This document shows, piece by piece, positions 26 through 4,273 of a stretch of DNA of 4,273 nt. The stretch lies in the IMG/VR virus record IMGVR_UViG_2695420650_000010; one strand, given 5' to 3'. The translations under genes and the position numbers were made by a program. The stretch is from a virus. Lineage: Duplodnaviria > Heunggongvirae > Uroviricota > Caudoviricetes. A model generated the notes under the pieces. The model had not been told where the DNA came from, made no database searches, and saw nothing but the letters and a program-made list of their open reading frames with translations. Positions within the stretch are counted from its first letter, which is position 1, and every line of letters begins with the position of its first letter.

Positions 26-214
26 TTAAAAAAAGAACAAATGGTAGTGTCCGCTATTGCCAGTACACCTCAGGGTATAAGGGGTTATGGCCACCGGACT
101 ACCAAACGGCTGCCAGCCCTCTTTCAGTTTATGTGTCAGCTTTTCCGCAAGATCTGACGGCGGCGCCGCCCTGACAACATCATAGTGTTTAAATGCCATG
201 GTTCTTTCCACCAT
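26..214 (-). CDS. hypothetical small protein of the phage late region (62 aa from ATG at 214; 57 aa if the internal ATG at 199 is the true start)
   Basis: Open frame on the late-operon strand, stop TAA at 26-28. The internal ATG at 197-199 is preceded by GGTGGAAAG (weak Shine-Dalgarno-like, about 7-nt spacer); the first ATG has none. The sequence MAFKHYDVVRAAPPSDLAEKL... feels familiar as a small conserved lambdoid-prophage protein, but I cannot name the family with certainty. Confidence 0.5.
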   Translation of the reverse strand: MVERTMAFKHYDVVRAAPPSDLAEKLTHKLKEGWQPFGSPVAITPYTLRCTGNSGHYHLFFF

Positions 215-459: not shown

Positions 460-1229
460 ATGAAGTGGATTGTGATTGATACAGTTATCCAGCCATCATG
501 CGGAATATCTTTTTCAGTCATATGGAGTAAAATAAAATTAATAATCTGGTATCAATCGGATGCTTTCTTACCTCCTGAAAGTATATTTACACTGACTCAC
601 ACAGGCATCATGCTCAATAACAAAGTGCTACCTGTAACCATTTACAACGTAGTACCATTCAATAAAACATTCTGGAATTCAATCAAAAATAGCCAGGAAT
701 GCCCTACAAATACAGATAANNNNNNNNNNNNNNNNNNNNNNNNNNNNNNNNNNNNNNNNNNNNNNNNNNNNNNNNNNNNNNNNNNNNNNNNNNNNNNNNN
801 NNNNNNNNNNNNNNNNNNNNNNNNNNNNNNNNNNNNNNNNNNNNNNNNNNNNNNNNNNNNNNNNNNNNNNNATATAGCACCCTGACTGATACTGTAGTAC
901 CTAAGGTTCCAGAAACTGTGATGTATCNNNNNNNNNNNNNNNNNNNNNCAGTCATATGGAGTAAAATAAAATTAATAATCTGGTATCAATCGGATGCTTT
1001 CTTACCTCCTGAAAGTATATTTACACTGACTCACACAGGCATCATGCTCAATAACAAAGTGCTACCTGTAACCATTTACAACGTAGTACCATTCAATAAA
1101 ACATTCTGGAATTCAATCAAAAATAGCCAGGAATGCCCTACAAATACAGATAACGTATTGAATGAATGCTTTAATAACCGTTGCACTCTGCAAATATGTC
1201 CTTATGGACTAAAACAACAAAGTCCATAA
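460..1229 (+). CDS. hypothetical Cys-rich small protein; frame runs through two N gaps and a duplicated 205-bp segment (about 111 aa if the duplication is collapsed)
   Basis: ATG at 460 with AAGGA Shine-Dalgarno; stop TAA at 1227-1229. The frame is open across AT-rich DNA, where stops are frequent by chance. The C-terminal part has C-x10-C-x4-C-x4-C spacing ([23 protein letters not shown]). The minus strand here has no comparable ORF. True length is unknown because of the gaps. Confidence 0.4.
515..719. repeat. direct repeat copy 1 (205 bp), matching 949-1153 by eye
   Basis: Visually identical sequence at a 434-bp offset, ending exactly at the start of the N run. Confidence 0.8.
720..871. 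other. assembly gap (run of N)
   Basis: Contiguous n characters. Confidence 0.95.
928..948. other. assembly gap (run of N)
   Basis: Contiguous n characters; the 56 bp at 872-927 between the two gaps occurs nowhere else in the window. Confidence 0.95.
949..1153. repeat. direct repeat copy 2 (205 bp), matching 515-719 by eye
   Basis: Starts immediately after the N run and keeps the same reading frame as copy 1. Confidence 0.8.
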
Positions 1230-1248: not shown

Positions 1249-1285
1249 CAAAATCAATATAAACAGCCCCTCCGGAGAGGGGCTG
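1249..1285 (-). terminator. rho-independent terminator-like hairpin for minus-strand transcripts
   Basis: 9-bp GC-rich stem CAGCCCCTC / GAGGGGCTG (1264-1272 and 1277-1285) with 4-nt loop. On the minus strand it is followed by the U-rich tail TTTATATTGATTTTG; on the plus strand there is no U tract. Confidence 0.5.
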
Positions 1286-1676
1286 GAGAGTGGCGCTATG
1301 TGCCATTGCATGGTGCCGGGTGCCTCCCGGTGAATTCAGTACCAGCACCTGAATCCGCGATTATCCCATATACCTACTCGCTGATTGCCCCTCCGCACAG
1401 GGGGATTCACCATGCCAGTTTCTTTTAACAAACTCCCCGCAAACCAGACAACAGTCAACCGCCTGAATTGTGAAGTATTTAAAAATTTCTCCCGCTAACT
1501 GATACCCGGCTAACAGTCTGGCGTTTTCTTTTTCAGCAACGGGAAAGCAACAACCACCACACCCGCCACCAGCACACCGTCAGCCAGCACTGACATTATC
1601 CGGCTGCTGCAATGCCATTCACAAAAACAGTAAGCAATCACTTTTTACCGTAACAGGTGATAATCCAGATATGTAT

Positions 1677-2030
1677 CTACCCCAGATGAGTAATCCGAAG
1701 TTCATCCATACCACAGGTCCTGGCTATTCTGTTGTACTCCTGAACAAGAGCAAATAATTCTGAATTAGCAACCATGAACTCATCGCAAACCCTCTGTATA
1801 GCATCACTATTCAGAATAATAACGTCTCTTCCCGAAAGACGATCAGGAGTACAGAACAAAACTGTCAAACGGCTGAAGGCCTTTGCTCGTGCTGCATTGA
1901 CTATATCAATACGCTGCCTAAGGATGAAACACCCCGACGCCTCATCAATATTCACTCTACCCACACCATATGAATGATAAATATTTAATGCTGAAAAAAC
2001 CATTAGACCGTATAACAAACACTCAATCAA
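1677..2030 (-). CDS. hypothetical protein (117 aa from TTG at 2030; 108 aa from the first ATG at 2003)
   Basis: Longest ORF in the cargo segment and in late-operon orientation. No convincing Shine-Dalgarno before either start and no recognisable motifs, so confidence is low. Confidence 0.35.
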   Translation of the reverse strand: MIECLLYGLMVFSALNIYHSYGVGRVNIDEASGCFILRQRIDIVNAARAKAFSRLTVLFCTPDRLSGRDVIILNSDAIQRVCDEFMVANSELFALVQEYNRIARTCGMDELRITHLG

Positions 2031-2140: not shown

Positions 2141-2217
2141 TGGCGCGCTGTACTGGATTCGAACCAGTGACCGATTGCTTAGAAGGCAATTGCTCTGTCC
2201 GGCTGAGCTAACAACGC
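2141..2217 (-). tRNA. tRNA-Arg (anticodon UCU), 77 nt with encoded CCA
   Basis: Reverse complement folds as a cloverleaf: acceptor GCGTTGT/ACAGCGC (one G-U pair), D-arm GCTC...GAGC, anticodon stem ATTGC/GCAAT with loop CTTCTAA, T-arm ACTGG-TTCGAAT-CCAGT, discriminator G, CCA. Similar from memory to E. coli argU; likely argN or argO of a lambdoid prophage, but I cannot tell which. Confidence 0.85.
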
Positions 2218-2230
2218 ATGATGCAGATAA

Positions 2231-2258
2231 TGGACCGCCATCGGGGACTTGAACCCCG
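2231..2258 (-). tRNA. partial tRNA, 3' end only (T-arm, acceptor 3' arm, discriminator U, CCA); 5' part lies in the N gap
   Basis: Minus strand reads CGGGG-TTCAAGT-CCCCG (a T-arm with TTCRANY loop), then ATGGCGG-T-CCA. Identity cannot be assigned. Confidence 0.4.
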
Positions 2259-2299
2259 NNNNNNNNNNNNNNNNNNNNNNNNNNNNNNNNNNNNNNNNN
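2259..2299. other. assembly gap (run of N) inside the tRNA cluster
   Basis: Contiguous n characters; true gap length unknown. Confidence 0.95.
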
Positions 2300-2367
2300 G
2301 TACTGGATTCGAACCAGTGACCGATTGCTTAGAAGGCAATTGCTCTGTCCGGCTGAGCTAACAACGC
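2300..2367 (-). tRNA. tRNA-Arg (anticodon UCU), second copy, 3' end truncated by the N gap
   Basis: The visible 68 nt are identical to the corresponding part of the tRNA-Arg at 2141-2217, including the anticodon loop. Confidence 0.75.
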
Positions 2368-2376
2368 TGAATACCG

Positions 2377-2399
2377 ATAATGGACCGCCATCGGGGACC
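2377..2399 (-). repeat. 23-nt tRNA 3'-end fragment, direct repeat of 2227-2249
   Basis: GATAATGGACCGCCATCGGGGAC occurs at both places. At 2227-2249 it continues into a proper T-arm; at 2377-2399 the adjoining sequence has no T-loop, so this copy is a remnant. Confidence 0.6.
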
Positions 2400-2467
2400 C
2401 GCCCCCGCACCAACAACCCTGTTATCGTGTCGTCTGCTCTTCCTGATAAGCTAATGGCGGTTTGTGA

Positions 2468-2543
2468 TGGTGGCCCTTGCTGGATTTGAACCAGCGACCT
2501 GGCGATTATGAGTCGCTCGCTCTCACCACTGAGCTAAAGGGCC
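2468..2543 (-). tRNA. ileZ: tRNA-Ile2 (anticodon CAU, lysidine type), 76 nt with encoded CCA
   Basis: Reverse complement GGCCCTTTAGCTCAGTGGTGAGAGCGAGCGACTCATAATCGCCAGGTCGCTGGTTCAAATCCAGCAAGGGCCACCA. Acceptor GGCCCTT/AAGGGCC, anticodon loop CTCATAA, T-loop TTCAAAT. Closely resembles E. coli ileX/ileY as I remember them. The ileZ-argN-argO arrangement is characteristic of lambdoid prophages. Confidence 0.85.
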
Positions 2544-2583: not shown

Positions 2584-3642
2584 TCATCCGTTCTGGCTGA
2601 CTAAATCCTGTACTTCCCGAACCGTCTGCTCAAAACGTTCAGTCTCCAGCTCAACGCCAATTGCACGACGCCCGAGCGCCAGTGCCGCTTTCACTGTCGA
2701 ACCCAACCCCATGAAAAAATCTGCAATCAGGTCACCCGGACGACTGCTAGCGCTGATTATCTGCTGCAGCATTTCTGCCGGTTTTTCGCACGGATGTTTC
2801 CCGGGATAGAACTGCACCGGTTTATGCGTCCACACATCGGTATACGGCACCTGCACCGTCACGCCAAAATACCGCCGCAGATGTTTATATTCACTCAGCA
2901 GCTCCGCATACTGCCGGTTCAGTGAGGTATACGTATCCACCAGCTGGTGGTGGAGCTTTTCCAGTTCACCACGCCGATGCTTCTCTTCTGCCACCCGGGC
3001 AAACAGCGCCTGTAATTTCAGATAATCGCTTTCATTCGGCAACTGCCACTGACCGGCACTGAACCAGTGCGACACCATGTTTTTCTTTCCTGTGGCATCT
3101 GCAATCTGTTTTGCCGTTATCCCCAGGGCAGCTCGCGCATCACGAAAGTAAGAAATCAGCGGGGCCATCACATGCTGTTTCAGTGCACTGCCCTTCGCCG
3201 CATACCCGGCATCTTTCGGACGATACGGCCCCTGATAATGTTCCGCGAACAGAATGCGCTCTGTGGCGGGGAAATACGCCCGCAGGCTTTCCTTGTTGCA
3301 TCCGTTCCAGCGTCCGGACGGCTTCGCCCAGATAATATGGTTCAGCACACTGAAGCGTTCACGCATCATGATTTCGATATCAGATGCCAGGCGATGACCA
3401 CAGAACAGGTAAAGACTTCCGGCAGGTTTCAGCACCCGCCAGAACTGCGCCAGACACTGGTCCAGCCACTTCAGGTAATCATCGTCGCCCTTCCACTGGT
3501 TATCCCAGCCCTCAGGCTTCACTTTAAAGTACGGCGGGTCCGTGACTATCAGGTCAACAGAATTTTCGGGTAACGACCGGATAAATTCCAGGCAGTCGGC
3601 GTTGATTAACTCACAACTGGATATTTTTACAGTATTAAGCAT
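2584..3642 (-). CDS. DNA methyltransferase, beta-class N6-adenine or N4-cytosine (N6_N4_Mtase family), apparently orphan
   Basis: 352-aa ORF, ATG at 3642, TGA at 2584. Motif IV DLIVTDPPYF near the N-terminus; HPCEKP (HPxxKP-type) and AdoMet-binding motif I DFFMGLGST near the C-terminus. That order is typical of beta-class amino-methyltransferases (CcrM, M.HinfI, M.RsrI-like). No endonuclease gene is adjacent in the window. Target site cannot be inferred. Confidence 0.92.
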   Translation of the reverse strand: MLNTVKISSCELINADCLEFIRSLPENSVDLIVTDPPYFKVKPEGWDNQWKGDDDYLKWLDQCLAQFWRVLKPAGSLYLFCGHRLASDIEIMMRERFSVLNHIIWAKPSGRWNGCNKESLRAYFPATERILFAEHYQGPYRPKDAGYAAKGSALKQHVMAPLISYFRDARAALGITAKQIADATGKKNMVSHWFSAGQWQLPNESDYLKLQALFARVAEEKHRRGELEKLHHQLVDTYTSLNRQYAELLSEYKHLRRYFGVTVQVPYTDVWTHKPVQFYPGKHPCEKPAEMLQQIISASSRPGDLIADFFMGLGSTVKAALALGRRAIGVELETERFEQTVREVQDLVSQNG

Positions 3643-3674
3643 GGATCATTAAGCCTGTCTCTGATAGGCTCATT

Positions 3675-3693
3675 CTGCTTTTGCGCAAAGCAG
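3675..3693. promoter_or_regulatory. near-perfect 19-bp palindrome CTGCTTTTGCGCAAAGCAG upstream of the methyltransferase start
   Basis: Arms CTGCTTT / AAAGCAG around a central GCGC, 33-51 nt upstream of the ATG at 3642. A weak promoter-like pair, TTGCGC then 16 nt then TATCAG on the minus strand, puts the -35 at the palindrome centre. Candidate operator. Confidence 0.35.
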
Positions 3694-3734
3694 TGGGCCT
3701 GAGGTTTGCTTGTGAACCCAACGCATGAGCAGAT

Positions 3735-3774
3735 GGCTGGTGGGTGCCCCTAACACCCACCNCCCCCCCCAGCC
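3735..3774. repeat. inverted repeat GGCTGGTGGGTG / CACCCACC...AGCC interrupted by a poly-C tract (poly-G on the coding strand) containing an ambiguous base
   Basis: Left arm 3735-3746; right arm 3754-3761 plus 3771-3774, split by c-n-cccccccc at 3761-3770. The minus strand is G-tract rich (G8, GGTGGG, GGGG). Confidence 0.6.
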
Positions 3775-3791
3775 GCCCATTTACCACAAAT

Positions 3792-3815
3792 AAAAAAGCC
3801 TTCACTGCGGAAGGC
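3792..3815 (-). terminator. rho-independent terminator-like hairpin overlapping the stop codon of the 65-aa ORF
   Basis: 6-bp stem GCCTTC / GAAGGC (3798-3803 and 3810-3815) with 6-nt loop, followed on the minus strand by TTTTTTATTTG. The stem is short, so moderate confidence. Confidence 0.45.
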
Positions 3816-3999
3816 GTCTGTAACAACCGAACTGATAGTCTGCCAGACCCGCCATAACCAGCTGGGTCAGTATTAACTGGCAGCGTTCGCGTGAAAGGTA
3901 AGTATTCTGCGCTATCTCCCCGACTGTCGCCGGTTCGGTAACGCTTAATTCATTAAACACCACTCTGGCGGTTTCTGTCATATCCTGCTGTTTTAGCAT
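3802..3999 (-). CDS. hypothetical small protein (65 aa), possible helix-turn-helix DNA-binding protein
   Basis: ATG at 3999 preceded by a good Shine-Dalgarno (AAAGGAAAAG, about 6-nt spacer); stop TGA at 3802-3804. The segment TVGEIAQNTYLSRERCQLILTQLVMAGL has an HTH-like pattern. Sits between two terminator-like hairpins, directly upstream of the methyltransferase. Confidence 0.6.
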   Translation of the reverse strand: MLKQQDMTETARVVFNELSVTEPATVGEIAQNTYLSRERCQLILTQLVMAGLADYQFGCYRRLPQ

Positions 4000-4117
4000 G
4001 TCTTTTCCTTTTCCGGTTAACGTGACACACCAATAACTCTTGTCGAAAAAGCCAGCAAGCTGAAAGACAGGTATTCACCGCCACCAGCGCGTTTACTGTA
4101 CTGACGCGATTTCAGTC

Positions 4118-4143
4118 ATAAAAAACCCGCTCGGCGGCGGGTT
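4118..4143 (-). terminator. rho-independent terminator (tR'-like) for minus-strand transcripts
   Basis: Stem CCCGC / GCGGG (4126-4130 and 4137-4141), extendable by two A-T pairs, followed on the minus strand by six U (complement of A 4120-4125). Sits about 45-65 nt downstream of the candidate promoter. Confidence 0.6.
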
Positions 4144-4190: not shown

Positions 4191-4218
4191 AATTTACCAC
4201 AGATTCCGGAAAAATCAA
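4191..4218 (-). promoter_or_regulatory. candidate late promoter (pR'-like) with extended -10
   Basis: On the minus strand: -35 TTGATT (complement of 4213-4218), 16-nt spacer, TGgTAAATT (complement of 4191-4199). As I remember it, the lambda pR' -10 region is GGGTAAATT with -35 TTGACT. Position between the end of an upstream ORF and a terminator fits pR'/tR' architecture. Confidence 0.45.
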
Positions 4219-4273
4219 CCTTGTTACCTAGTTACCTTTTTTAACTGCCGCTCAGCCCATGCTTCTTCAATAT

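Follow-up and report, generated by a model that had tools for sequence, protein, structure and literature searches.

A probable lambdoid prophage late-operon cassette in which an M.EcoGII-family methyltransferase follows a small winged-helix protein gene and a conserved structured leader RNA

M.EcoGII and M.EcoGI are non-specific N6-adenine methyltransferases encoded in prophages of E. coli O104:H4 C227-11 (PMC5778455). M.EcoGII is non-specific, toxic on expression and silent in lysogens, and is presumed to protect exported phage DNA (PMC5778455, PMC12707154); the methyltransferase of phage 1720a-02 was named as its relative by Murray et al. (PMC5778455). In phage Mu, com precedes mom, and in Mu-like prophages com is followed by the non-specific methyltransferases hin1523/hia5; these systems are precedents for the control of a harmful late DNA-modification gene by a small upstream ORF and a start-occluding RNA (PMC6483171, PMC3299994). 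C proteins of restriction-modification systems, such as C.PvuII and C.Esp1396I, are small HTH-type proteins found beside a methyltransferase, with a dyad, the C-box, upstream in the regulator's own promoter (PMC12707154). In lambdoid and Stx phages, the Q gene is followed by a late promoter and an intrinsic terminator (PR′–tR′), as described in the work on StxS (PMC7547250).

Here, we analyzed a 4,273-nt stretch of DNA (the window) from a Caudoviricetes virus (IMG/VR record IMGVR_UViG_2695420650_000010), in which a gene of the M.EcoGI/M.EcoGII family lies downstream of a 65-aa ORF. The methyltransferase, the 65-aa ORF and an inverted repeat, which the first-pass annotation had reported, were all present where it had placed them, on the minus strand. 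The features of the locus, read 5′ to 3′ on that strand, are as follows:

4224..4273, minus strand: 3′ end of the Q antiterminator gene, TAA stop at 4226-4224 (frame read from the sequence)
4191..4218, minus strand: putative late promoter PR′, TTGATT, 16-nt spacer and TGgTAAATT (extended −10) (read from the sequence)
4114..4143, minus strand: intrinsic terminator T1, tR′-like, stem AACCCGC/GCGGGTT followed by a T-run (terminator scan; inverted repeat I9)
3802..3999, minus strand: 65-aa winged-helix ORF, family phrog_331 (ORF, family, coding signature, fold and synteny)
3788..3815, minus strand: intrinsic terminator T2, GCCTTC-CGCAGT-GAAGGC followed by TTTTTTATTT (terminator scan)
3640..3790, minus strand: structured 5′ leader RNA of the methyltransferase, ~150 nt (covariance model, covariation)
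3735..3774, minus strand: leader hairpin P2, 12 bp (inverted repeats I3 and I5; comparison with the clean relative L004)
3713..3719, minus strand: internal GGGUUCA segment (GGUCA or GAUCA in relatives), predicted partner of the start-proximal UGAUC
3675..3693, minus strand: inverted repeat I10, which is leader hairpin P4 (inverted-repeat search, covariation)
3643..3648, minus strand: start-proximal UGAUCC, containing GATC, immediately 5′ of the AUG (sequence)
2584..3642, minus strand: methyltransferase of the M.EcoGI/M.EcoGII family, beta-class N6-adenine, 352 aa (Pfam, identity, motifs)
2141..2543, minus strand: tRNA genes on the same strand, 3′ of the methyltransferase (ARAGORN; Rfam)
2468-2543, minus strand: tRNA-Met(CAT)
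2294-2367, minus strand: second tRNA, probably tRNA-Arg by homology with the Stx phage trio
2141-2217, minus strand: tRNA-Arg(TCT)

The methyltransferase and its place in the late operon

The methyltransferase matched the Pfam family N6_N4_Mtase (PF01555) over residues 29–340 with an E-value of 7.9e-42 and 144.1 bits, far above the cut-off of 26.7 bits, so the profile search bore out the family proposed by the first-pass annotation. DPPY occupied residues 35–38 and FMGLG residues 310–314, and the order of DPPY before FxGxG is that of the beta class. Asp-35, Pro-36, Pro-37, Tyr-38, Phe-309, Phe-310, Gly-312 and Gly-314 were invariant in 12 relatives, down to 61% identity; the conservation of both catalytic motifs thus held in the homologue alignment. 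Within FxGxG, the window enzyme had Leu where Ser was found in M.EcoGII and in 11 of the 12 relatives. Over the full length, 324 of 349 residues (~93%) were identical to M.EcoGII, the reference being the sequence printed in the SUPREM supplement with a few OCR errors, and identity to the phage 1720a-02 methyltransferase was 95%. The window copy shares with M.EcoGII its prophage location, its motif order and a central helix-turn-helix-containing recognition domain (the central insert, residues 167–195, gave a weak HTH_3 match in Pfam); it differs in its length (352 versus 349 aa) and in its C-terminal tail. No endonuclease gene was found in the window or in the annotated relatives, where the neighbors were Q, tRNAs, lysis genes and accessory cargo genes. 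Together, these results support the earlier description of an orphan beta-class methyltransferase. The 93% identity suggests that the window enzyme would, like M.EcoGII, be non-specific, toxic and silent in lysogens.

The window opens, on the coding strand, with the end of the Q gene, and quuQ (antitermination protein Q) is annotated at the homologous position of the Stx2a phage Stx2_EH1910. The putative PR′ was assigned because it lies just 3′ of Q, as in lambdoid/Stx phages (PMC7547250); it scored below the threshold of the consensus promoter scan. No promoter-like site was detected by consensus scan between the two terminators and the methyltransferase gene. T2 contains the stop codon of the 65-aa ORF, and in relatives a hairpin is kept at this position with different stem sequences.

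A Q gene preceded the module in every locus examined, with Q belonging to three unrelated Pfam families (PF06323, PF03589 and PF06530), and lysis genes, tRNAs or stx stood 3′ of the module across these loci. The module lay between the Q gene and the holin/endolysin genes in Klebsiella, Mixta and Providencia as well as in viral contigs. In Stx phages, the gene order was Q, hypothetical protein, methylase, tRNAs and stx, and the same tRNA trio was present 3′ of the methylase. The locus therefore shares with lambdoid and Stx phages not only the Q–PR′–tR′ arrangement but also the placement of accessory cargo (tRNAs, stx and other inserted genes) ahead of the lysis genes. It differs from PR′–tR′ phages in that the winged-helix ORF, a second terminator and the methyltransferase are inserted between tR′ and the tRNAs, and from the 933W and Sakai Sp5 and Sp15 phages in its Q type and leader; StxS was not detected in the window. 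With Q and two intrinsic terminators upstream, and tRNAs and lysis genes downstream, the layout supports late expression and a counter-restriction role. Both had been proposed in the first-pass annotation: late co-transcription agrees with the position of the gene behind Q, and counter-restriction fits this position and the presumed protection of exported phage DNA by M.EcoGII. The M.EcoGII papers cited here give no description of an upstream winged-helix ORF, of two terminators or of a structured leader.

A conserved structured leader before the start codon

A covariance model of the leader (R1) matched the window with 87.9 bits (E = 3.4e-21) and matched related loci once each, on the sense strand and abutting the ATG; the leader was conserved across Enterobacterales. 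Rfam 15 left it unmatched at E ≤ 1 in the window and in six related loci, among them five clean relatives, and again when the whole window was searched at gathering thresholds. A SAM or SAH riboswitch gained no positive support, with no Rfam match and few of the unpaired junction bases conserved. The present methylase leader is not mentioned in the papers on StxS, the anti-sRNA and Pas sRNAs.

Two folds were evaluated. In fold A, a three-way junction of P1, P2 and P3, 85.9% of cells were paired across 77 distinct leaders, compared with 35–44% in slid registers, and 24 of 39 pairs had changed on both sides, which was equalled in 0 of 500 shuffles. Fold B, which is predicted to occlude the start, reached 91.6% paired cells, with both-sided changes at 21 of 34 pairs, when scored on the alignment fitted to fold A, and was the fold obtained when single leaders were folded (z-scores −3.6 to −4.1). 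Both-sided changes affected 10 of 12 pairs in P2 (94.9% of cells paired) and six of seven in P4 (88.5%); in the window, a G-run with an N interrupts the 5′ arm of P2. P3 of fold A was only 78% paired because of many C–A mismatches, which would be G–U pairs on the antisense strand. Independent covariation events are fewer than these cell counts suggest because much of the covariation separates few clades. Together, these results indicate that the leader is a conserved structured RNA, absent from Rfam, with extensive compensatory base changes.

We considered whether the intergenic stretch is instead selected as DNA, for Chi hotspots, a promoter or a protein-binding site, and not for RNA structure. 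The 5′ arm of P2 is a Chi sequence (GCTGGTGG) in most E. coli and Klebsiella leaders and in many of the Providencia type, the window contains five Chi sites against 0.12 expected, and the center of P4 is often perfectly palindromic. A strand test over the whole leader was a tie (155 G–U versus 175 A–C cells), with P3 pairing better on the antisense strand. However, G–U pairs favored the sense strand in P2 (40 versus 12) and P5 (95 versus 32), and the arms of P2 change completely among relatives (GACUGUAAAAGUG, GACAGUGAGGAUG, GGCAGAAGAGUG, GACCGAUGAGUG), with complementarity kept and Chi lost. Moreover, the element always adjoins the start codon on the coding strand, the promoter scan was negative, and a long-range helix to the start region covaries and stays in register with the start codon, including in leaders where the AUG has shifted into cAUGAUC. 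Selection at the DNA level is thus an improbable explanation of the leader.

Two candidate features within the leader were tried and rejected. A promoter (TGTGGTAAAT, resembling the extended −10 of the putative PR′) had neither a conserved hexamer nor conserved spacing, and the scan was negative. For a conserved leader peptide (AUG GGC GGC UGG UGG GUG UUG UAG; MGGWWVL), the start codon was AUG in ~70 and GUG in 6 of the 77 leaders; the same bases are explained by pairing, and the frame stops after 7, 8, 36 or 54 codons or enters the methyltransferase gene.

No canonical Shine-Dalgarno sequence precedes the methyltransferase AUG. GAUC was nearly invariant in the leader alignments, and in the leaders examined the minimum-energy fold left the start-proximal bases paired. 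The long-range helix between the internal segment and UGAUC was 86–88% paired, with three pairs changed on both sides, and was present in the minimum-energy fold of four of five singly folded leaders. In the E. coli-type leader L004, the GGUUCA/UGAUC pairing was absent from the minimum-energy fold; in the most divergent leader, L168, the start-occluding helix was kept with an entirely different sequence. The long-range helix thus gives a computationally predicted RNA structure that would occlude the start, comparable to that of the Mu Com system. Some contigs carried shorter type B leaders without P3′ and P4 and with no obvious start occlusion; two of four were strongly structured (z about −3.7), and a shared start-occluding helix was found in none.

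In the 5′ UTR of the MS2 maturation gene, a distant upstream segment pairs with the ribosome-binding region across a structured domain. The present leader is similar in that a complementary segment tens of nucleotides upstream is predicted to pair with the ribosome-binding region. It differs in belonging to the late mRNA of a DNA phage and in sharing no sequence or structural homology with MS2, and kinetic control is here only a possibility.

The 65-aa protein and hairpin P4

The 65-aa ORF is truly coding: variable sites were distributed 34/30/58 over the three codon positions, and synonymous codon differences (2494) outnumbered non-synonymous ones (1545). AlphaFold with 33 sequences gave a model with a pLDDT of 92.9 and the topology H1-b1-H2-H3-b2-b3 of a winged helix; this run replaced an earlier one on a shallow 22-sequence alignment (pLDDT 68). 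Foldseek returned a probability of 1.00 for all of the top 50 matches. The best were N-terminal winged-helix dimerization domains of SAM-dependent methyltransferases (RedM, DsyB, PigF and BchU), a group that also includes the only match at E ≤ 0.001; the SelB–SECIS complex and DNA-binding regulators such as MarR and IclR were among the others. The Pfam families TrmB (18.0 bits against a cut-off of 25.6, E = 0.0026), MarR_2, DprA_WH and HTH_24 all matched below their cut-offs, HTH_3 gave no Pfam match, no NCBIfam model matched, and a PDB sequence search returned nothing meaningful (best E = 0.63). Relatives are labeled 'TrmB family transcriptional regulator' at NCBI, a name that is an over-annotation and reflects the winged-helix fold only. 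The first-pass annotation had called the ORF HTH-like, which the fold upholds in the form of a winged helix but not of an Xre-type HTH; its doubt that the protein is a canonical C protein agrees with this fold.

The association of the small ORF with the methyltransferase was far beyond chance. In a search by the small protein, the methyltransferase lay ~150 nt 3′ of the small ORF in 23 of 24 loci from different species, and in a search by a Providencia methyltransferase, the two were found together in 77 of 80 viral contigs. Phage 1720a-02 carries the same small ORF upstream of its methyltransferase (63 of 63 aligned residues identical). In a third set, 22 of the 78 contigs with upstream sequence had the leader and methyltransferase without the small ORF. 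The small protein never occurred without the leader in our sample, except in L020, which retains a leader remnant.

The first-pass annotation had also described a 19-bp palindrome at 3675–3693 and likened the gene pair to controller-protein/C-box regulation. A repeat is indeed present, although it consists of two perfect 7-nt arms (CTGCTTT/AAAGCAG) with 5 nt between them and corresponds to hairpin P4. Taken alone it is not unusual, because the 1.9 kb searched held ten inverted repeats with arms of at least 7 nt; what makes it significant is solely its conservation and covariation across related loci. If the 65-aa protein were a C-protein-like factor setting methyltransferase transcription from a DNA operator at 3675–3693, the winged-helix fold, common to many DNA-binding regulators (MarR, IclR), and the synteny of the two genes would be in keeping with that role. 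So would the perfectly palindromic center of P4 in many lineages (AGCGCT, GTGCAC, ACGCGT, GTCGAC), which an RNA hairpin does not need. However, in several other lineages P4 is simply a hairpin whose loop is not self-complementary (UGCUG-CGAA-CAGCA, GCUG-CUUAA-CAGC), or carries a one-sided bulge. The dyad lies 109 nt 3′ of the small ORF stop, past T2 and inside the methyltransferase leader, with no promoter-like site nearby, whereas a C-box is upstream of its regulator. Furthermore, P4 behaves as a helix within a structured RNA, persists in lineages lacking the small ORF, and is missing from type B leaders that accompany the ORF. The protein is acidic, with a fold unlike the Xre/HTH_3 fold of C proteins, and an endonuclease is absent. 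The residues at the start of its helix 3 vary among relatives (SRERCQ, TDSSCR, SVGRCQ), and helix-3 residues showed no consistent pattern of co-variation with the P4 sequence. These results do not support the controller-protein/C-box analogy or the reading of the repeat as a C-box, and make transcriptional control through a DNA operator highly improbable.

We then weighed two roles beyond DNA binding. The small protein could bind the leader RNA and shift it from the closed fold to the open three-way junction, activating late translation of the methyltransferase as Com does for mom. The anatomy is that of Mu com–mom, with an upstream small ORF, a start-occluding structure and a harmful promiscuous enzyme (PMC6483171, PMC3299994); covariation backs each of the two mutually exclusive folds, and winged helices can bind RNA, SelB–SECIS being among the structural matches. 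In constrained folding, the closed fold was ahead by 5–19 kcal/mol in most clades bearing the small ORF and the open fold was equal or favored in clades without it, a comparison that rests on an imperfect column mapping and few independent clades. In contrast, ensemble accessibility of the start region was alike with and without the small ORF (0.38 versus 0.41), and L157, L164 and L167 have lost the ORF yet keep leaders nearly identical to those of ORF-bearing relatives. The protein is not a zinc finger; of its cysteines, only Cys-40 is nearly invariant, Cys-59 being lost in many relatives. It is acidic, with a median pI of 5.1 and a median net charge of −2, and neither the basic residues that would contact DNA nor any basic patch is conserved, which argues against strong nucleic-acid binding. 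A Com-like action of the small protein on the leader is therefore unlikely.

Alternatively, the small protein could bind the methyltransferase itself and temper, time or direct its activity, for example to lessen host damage or to give preference to phage DNA. The best structural matches are dimerization domains of SAM-dependent methyltransferases, an acidic protein suits protein contacts better than nucleic-acid contacts, and in our sample the protein did not occur apart from the methyltransferase module. Beta-class methyltransferases are, in addition, dimers with a division of labor (PMC7544214). Nevertheless, these matches are to a very common fold with modest E-values, M.EcoGII needs no partner for its full, non-specific activity in vitro and in vivo (PMC5778455), and the small ORF is dispensable in several lineages. 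The small protein also diverges much faster among relatives (37–98% identity) than the methyltransferase does (61–97%). We regard a partner-subunit role, too, as doubtful.

Proposed control of the methyltransferase and its significance

On balance, we favor with moderate confidence the view that the locus forms the opening cassette of a late operon in a lambdoid prophage, in which an M.EcoGII-family methyltransferase is controlled by Q read-through of T1 and T2 and by a start-occluding leader. Transcription would begin from the late promoter immediately 3′ of Q, and the methyltransferase would be reached only by Q-modified RNA polymerase reading through both terminators; the gene would therefore be silent in the lysogen and on together with lysis and packaging. 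Broad methylation of progeny DNA would then protect it against restriction in the next host. The ~150-nt leader would act as a second lock: a GGUCA(C)AAGC-type internal segment would pair with UGAUC and flanking bases 5′ of the AUG, and this closed fold would occlude the start site, which lacks a canonical Shine-Dalgarno sequence. The alternative three-way junction P1/P2/P3 would sequester the internal segment and free the start site, with the 3675–3693 'palindrome' serving as hairpin P4 of the leader. The 65-aa protein would be an accessory of the module and would most likely modulate the expression or activity of the methyltransferase, through the leader in the manner of Com or as a partner of the enzyme. 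Within this scheme, the present analysis established the family and motifs of the enzyme, the order of the genes, the terminator-like sites, the conservation and covariation of the RNA and the fold of the small protein, while non-specificity, toxicity and lysogen silence come from published work. It is from the anatomy of the locus that we infer Q dependence of the window copy and translational gating; the switch between leader folds and the action of the small protein are likewise proposals.

By analogy with phage Mu com–mom, the leader may thus be a translational gate on a toxic enzyme. The two systems would share a harmful, broad DNA modification confined to late expression, an upstream ORF of ~62–65 aa on the same transcript and a start-occluding RNA, which is predicted here. 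They have no homologous part: a winged helix stands in place of a CCCC zinc finger and a beta-class methyltransferase in place of Mom, and Q antitermination takes the place of the C activator with Dam/OxyR control of Mu. In addition, the two ORFs are set ~150 nt apart here with a terminator between them, and RNA binding by the small protein is only putative and is disfavored by its charge. A more ambitious and rather unlikely reading is that the leader is a new bistable regulatory RNA gating M.EcoGII-type methyltransferases, with the phrog_331 protein as its dedicated trans-acting effector; this effector may activate by binding the RNA, as Mu Com does, or may link the activity of the methyltransferase to the leader.

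M.EcoGII is in wide use as a reagent for non-specific m6A labeling, chromatin-accessibility mapping and RNA-methylation tools, and its natural control had previously been summarized only as 'not expressed in the lysogen'. The present analysis offers a testable account of this silence, namely Q read-through of two terminators and a leader folded over a start lacking a Shine-Dalgarno sequence, and draws attention to a conserved accessory protein left out of earlier studies of this enzyme. It also shows that the analogy with restriction-modification controllers fails here, and corrects the name 'TrmB family transcriptional regulator'. The leader is a candidate new family of cis-regulatory RNA in Enterobacterales prophages, Stx phages included, where it sits on the toxin transcript. 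Should the reading as a bistable RNA with a dedicated effector prove true, the module would represent a new, non-homologous solution to the com–mom problem, spread over Enterobacterales prophages behind three unrelated kinds of Q antiterminator.

An M.EcoGII-type methyltransferase module in the late region

All relevant features lie on the minus strand of the window, which is laid out as follows.

Features of the window
stop 4226-4224 (-): last codons of the Q antiterminator gene
4218-4191 (-): plausible late promoter, TTGATT-16-TGgTAAATT
4143-4114 (-): intrinsic terminator T1
3999-3802 (-): 65-aa ORF (small ORF)
3815-3788 (-): second terminator, T2, with the stop codon of the small ORF inside it
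3790-3640 (-): leader of the methyltransferase, 150 nt
3642-2584 (-): methyltransferase, 352 aa
(-): three tRNA genes, after the methyltransferase in the direction of transcription
1677-2030 (-): 117-aa phrog_2873 protein, function not assigned
460-1229 (+): IraM-like anti-adapter ORF, opposite strand, named from the RefSeq annotation of near-identical loci
26-214 (-): DUF1737 protein (E=1.5e-15)
720-871, 928-948, 2260-2299 and 3762: N-runs, flanked by duplicated sequence
about 513-719 / 949-1155 and 2150-2217 / 2300-2367: repeats

In Stx2a phages, which are 93-94% identical to the window, the genes are annotated, in order, as Q, hypothetical protein, DNA methylase, tRNA-Met, tRNA-Arg, tRNA-Arg and stx2AB; the phrog_2873 protein of the window sits in the slot held by stx in Stx phages. 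Non-Stx lambdoid prophages in many E. coli genomes, ST131 strains included, are 97-98% identical to the window. Downstream of the tRNAs, STnc100 (RF02076), a prophage sRNA, is matched over its full length at 1255-1444(-), with a score of 132 bits (gathering score 47); in the Escherichia albertii locus L004 there are two full copies and a weak one.

The IraM-like ORF and a tRNA-Arg are each present twice in the window, and comparison with L004 revealed a G-run of 8-10 bases with an N that breaks the 5' arm of leader helix P2. Because of the N-runs, the duplicated segments and this G-run, the window looks like a gapped draft assembly, these features resembling scaffolding and sequencing artefacts. 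Chi sites (GCTGGTGG) cluster in the window at 1566-1573(-), 2937-2944(-), 2943-2950(+), 3736-3743(+) and 4081-4088(-), giving five exact copies in 4.3 kb versus 0.12 expected, a number reached in 0 of 200 shuffles. Two of them overlap within the methyltransferase gene to form the palindrome CCACCAGCTGGTGG, and among clean relatives P2 has an additional Chi, on the late-sense strand, as its 5' arm.

The methyltransferase is an enzyme of known type. The Pfam N6_N4_Mtase HMM matched with E=7.9e-42, and the nearest solved structures were beta-class enzymes (E about 1e-25 or weaker), none of the structures compared being from its own family. It is 95% identical to the enzyme of phage 1720a-02, a close relative of M.EcoGII according to Murray et al. 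(PMC5778455), and 93% identical to M.EcoGII as printed in the SUPREM supplement. The catalytic motifs are conserved, with DPPY, F309, F310, G312 and G314 invariant in 12 relatives of identity down to 61%. Motif I of the window enzyme reads FMGLG (Leu313; codon about 2704-2706) versus Ser (FMGSG) in 11 of the 12, M.EcoGII included; the Leu313 allele is real, since the identical protein is found in four viral contigs. M.EcoGII methylates adenine regardless of sequence context, is toxic if expressed, is silent in the lysogen and is presumed to be turned on at prophage induction (PMC5778455, PMC7544214, PMC12707154). Since the enzyme is of the M.EcoGII type, the literature agrees and no endonuclease gene was found near the methyltransferase in any locus inspected, the first-pass annotation's reading of an orphan, late, counter-restriction enzyme stands; it is sound, and already known for this family.

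A search with the small protein, using one genome per species, yielded 24 loci, including Escherichia, Salmonella, Klebsiella, Kluyvera, Citrobacter, Buttiauxella, Mixta, Providencia and Mangrovibacter. An M.EcoGII-like gene begins about 150 nt downstream of the small ORF in 23 of them; in the sole exception, L020, the methyltransferase is deleted and a leader remnant is kept. Among viral contigs found with a Providencia methyltransferase, the small ORF was present in 77 of 80 loci. In a third search, 22 of the 78 contigs that include upstream sequence (two further contigs lack it) had no small ORF, the Q gene and its terminator being followed immediately by the leader and methyltransferase; L157, L164 and L167 of an earlier set likewise have the leader and methyltransferase without the small ORF. 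Thus the small ORF was never seen without the module in our sample, whereas the module does occur without the small ORF. A Q gene, from one of three different Pfam families, directly precedes the module in all loci examined, and holin and endolysin genes or accessory cargo genes follow it. In the Providencia prophage locus L021 (5523-7021(+)), the late-operon cargo behind the methyltransferase includes a eukaryotic-type Ser/Thr protein kinase together with a PP2C phosphatase. An E. coli-type cassette with 97-98% protein identity was also present in L003 (JBJEFM010000100.1), a contig of 2.5 kb that bears the label of a Bacillus metagenome-assembled genome and is probably a binning contaminant.

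A leader RNA with two predicted folds

The aligned intergenic regions were conserved above the level of the small protein and contained compensatory changes. A covariance model built on 56 distinct leaders gave exactly one match per locus, on the sense strand and ending at the ATG (3790-3640 in the window, 87.9 bits); an Rfam search over the leader returned no matching family. In fold A, a three-way junction (P1, UGGGC/GCCCA; P2; P3) is followed by hairpins P4 and P5. Across 77 distinct sequences, 85.9% of its cells were paired versus 35-44% in slid registers, and both sides had changed in 24 of 39 pairs (10 of 12 in P2 and 6 of 7 in P4), which was reached by 0 of 500 shuffles. In fold B, P2 and P4 are kept, AUGGGC pairs locally with GCYCRU, and a long-range helix is added between GGUCA-C-AAGC (or GAUCA-C-GGA) and GCUU-AC-UGAUC (or UCC-UGAUC) directly before the AUG. 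Here 91.6% of cells were paired and 21 of 34 pairs had changed on both sides, in an alignment that had been fitted to fold A. Comparison of the leaders supports both folds.

Leaders folded singly adopt fold B (z-scores -3.6 to -4.1). The most divergent leader, L168, keeps a start-occluding helix made of different bases (GGAGAGU/AUUUUCC), and in one lineage the AUG has shifted into cAUGAUC, placing the start codon itself under the same helix. Most leaders have no canonical Shine-Dalgarno sequence. The leader UGAUC could pair with the GAUCA located close to the 16S rRNA 3' end; if so, the internal GAUCAC would, we infer, mimic the rRNA segment. A GATC (Dam site) lies one base 5' of the methyltransferase start codon (3643-3648(-)) and is almost invariant in the longer, type A leaders; we take it to belong to the UGAUC pairing element. 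The leader 5' end also carries a start codon (3778-3780(-)); of 77 leaders, about 70 have AUG here and 6 have GUG. This codon opens a short frame that reads MGGWWVL* in many relatives and is a 36-aa ORF (3670-3780(-)) in the window; the frame varies in length, ending after 7, 8, 36 or 54 codons or reading on into the methyltransferase gene.

A large part of the covariation distinguishes a small number of clades. P3 contains many C-A mismatches that are G-U pairs if read on the other strand, and the strand test was a tie overall, with P2 and P5 clearly favouring the sense strand. The minimum-energy fold of the E. coli-type leader has P5 and a different closing helix instead of GGUUCA/UGAUC. The shorter type B leaders (viral contigs L169-L199; some 90-110 nt upstream of the methyltransferase), which accompany a divergent small-protein subfamily (36-48% identity), retain GUGAAAUGG and the P2 hairpin and are without P3' and P4. 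Two of the four type B leaders folded were strongly structured (z about -3.7), and none of the four showed start occlusion of the same style.

The 3675-3693 palindrome, which the first-pass annotation likened to a C-box, is P4 of this leader. As a palindrome it is unremarkable: 1.9 kb of the window contains ten similar inverted repeats, this one included. Its stem covaries among relatives (GCUUU/AAAGC, CGCA/GCG, UGCUG/CAGCA, GCUG/CAGC). In many lineages its centre is self-complementary too, which could hint at a DNA dyad. We nevertheless favour an RNA hairpin over an operator as the probable identity of P4, because the hairpin of other lineages has an ordinary loop (CGAA, CUUAA) or a bulge on one side, because the element is retained where the small ORF is missing, and because type B leaders accompanied by the small ORF lack it. 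The methyltransferase, the small ORF and the palindrome are real. The controller-protein/C-box analogy fails when the locus is compared with the defining features of such systems.

The small protein and predicted control of the module

The small ORF is a genuine gene, since its variable sites fall mostly at third codon positions (58 third, 34 first and 30 second, of 65) and synonymous codon differences exceed non-synonymous ones. Its product belongs to phrog_331, function not assigned; no NCBIfam model matched, and several winged-helix Pfam families matched, all of them below threshold. Scanned without a profile, 1.8 billion cluster representatives gave just 61 clusters, and the named relatives, like the loci fetched, were almost all from Enterobacterales. 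AlphaFold modelling with a diverse alignment (pLDDT 92.9) gave H1-b1-H2-H3-b2-b3, the canonical winged-helix order. Structural matches included MarR and IclR regulators and the SelB RNA-binding domain. Helix 3 supplies the invariant core through its hydrophobic part (LILTQL.MAGL); polar residues vary both where this helix begins and in the wing.

Expression of the methyltransferase would be locked twice, transcriptionally and then translationally: the first lock would be opened by Q-dependent read-through of T1 and T2, and the second would be the leader folded over the methyltransferase start site. The nearest functional precedent is Mu com-mom, together with the com and non-specific methyltransferase pairs of Mu-like prophages, in which a 62-aa upstream-encoded protein opens a translation-inhibiting hairpin (PMC6483171, PMC3299994). 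The small protein may be a Com-like RNA effector, which we consider rather unlikely: constrained folding favours the closed fold in most clades with the small ORF and not in those without, but ensemble accessibility of the start region is alike with and without it (0.38 vs 0.41), and the acidity of the family (median pI 5.1, net charge -2) argues against binding of RNA or DNA. A C-protein-like DNA regulator is highly improbable. The top structural matches, winged-helix dimerisation domains of SAM-dependent O-methyltransferases, would fit a partner of the methyltransferase, a tentative reading as plausible as the Com-like role. In these rough estimates, the remainder goes to an unrelated or other role.

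Together, these results add two pieces of new information on M.EcoGII-type enzymes: a winged-helix accessory protein that is specific to the module, its role not assigned, and a conserved, uncatalogued structured leader RNA that predicts translational gating of these enzymes.
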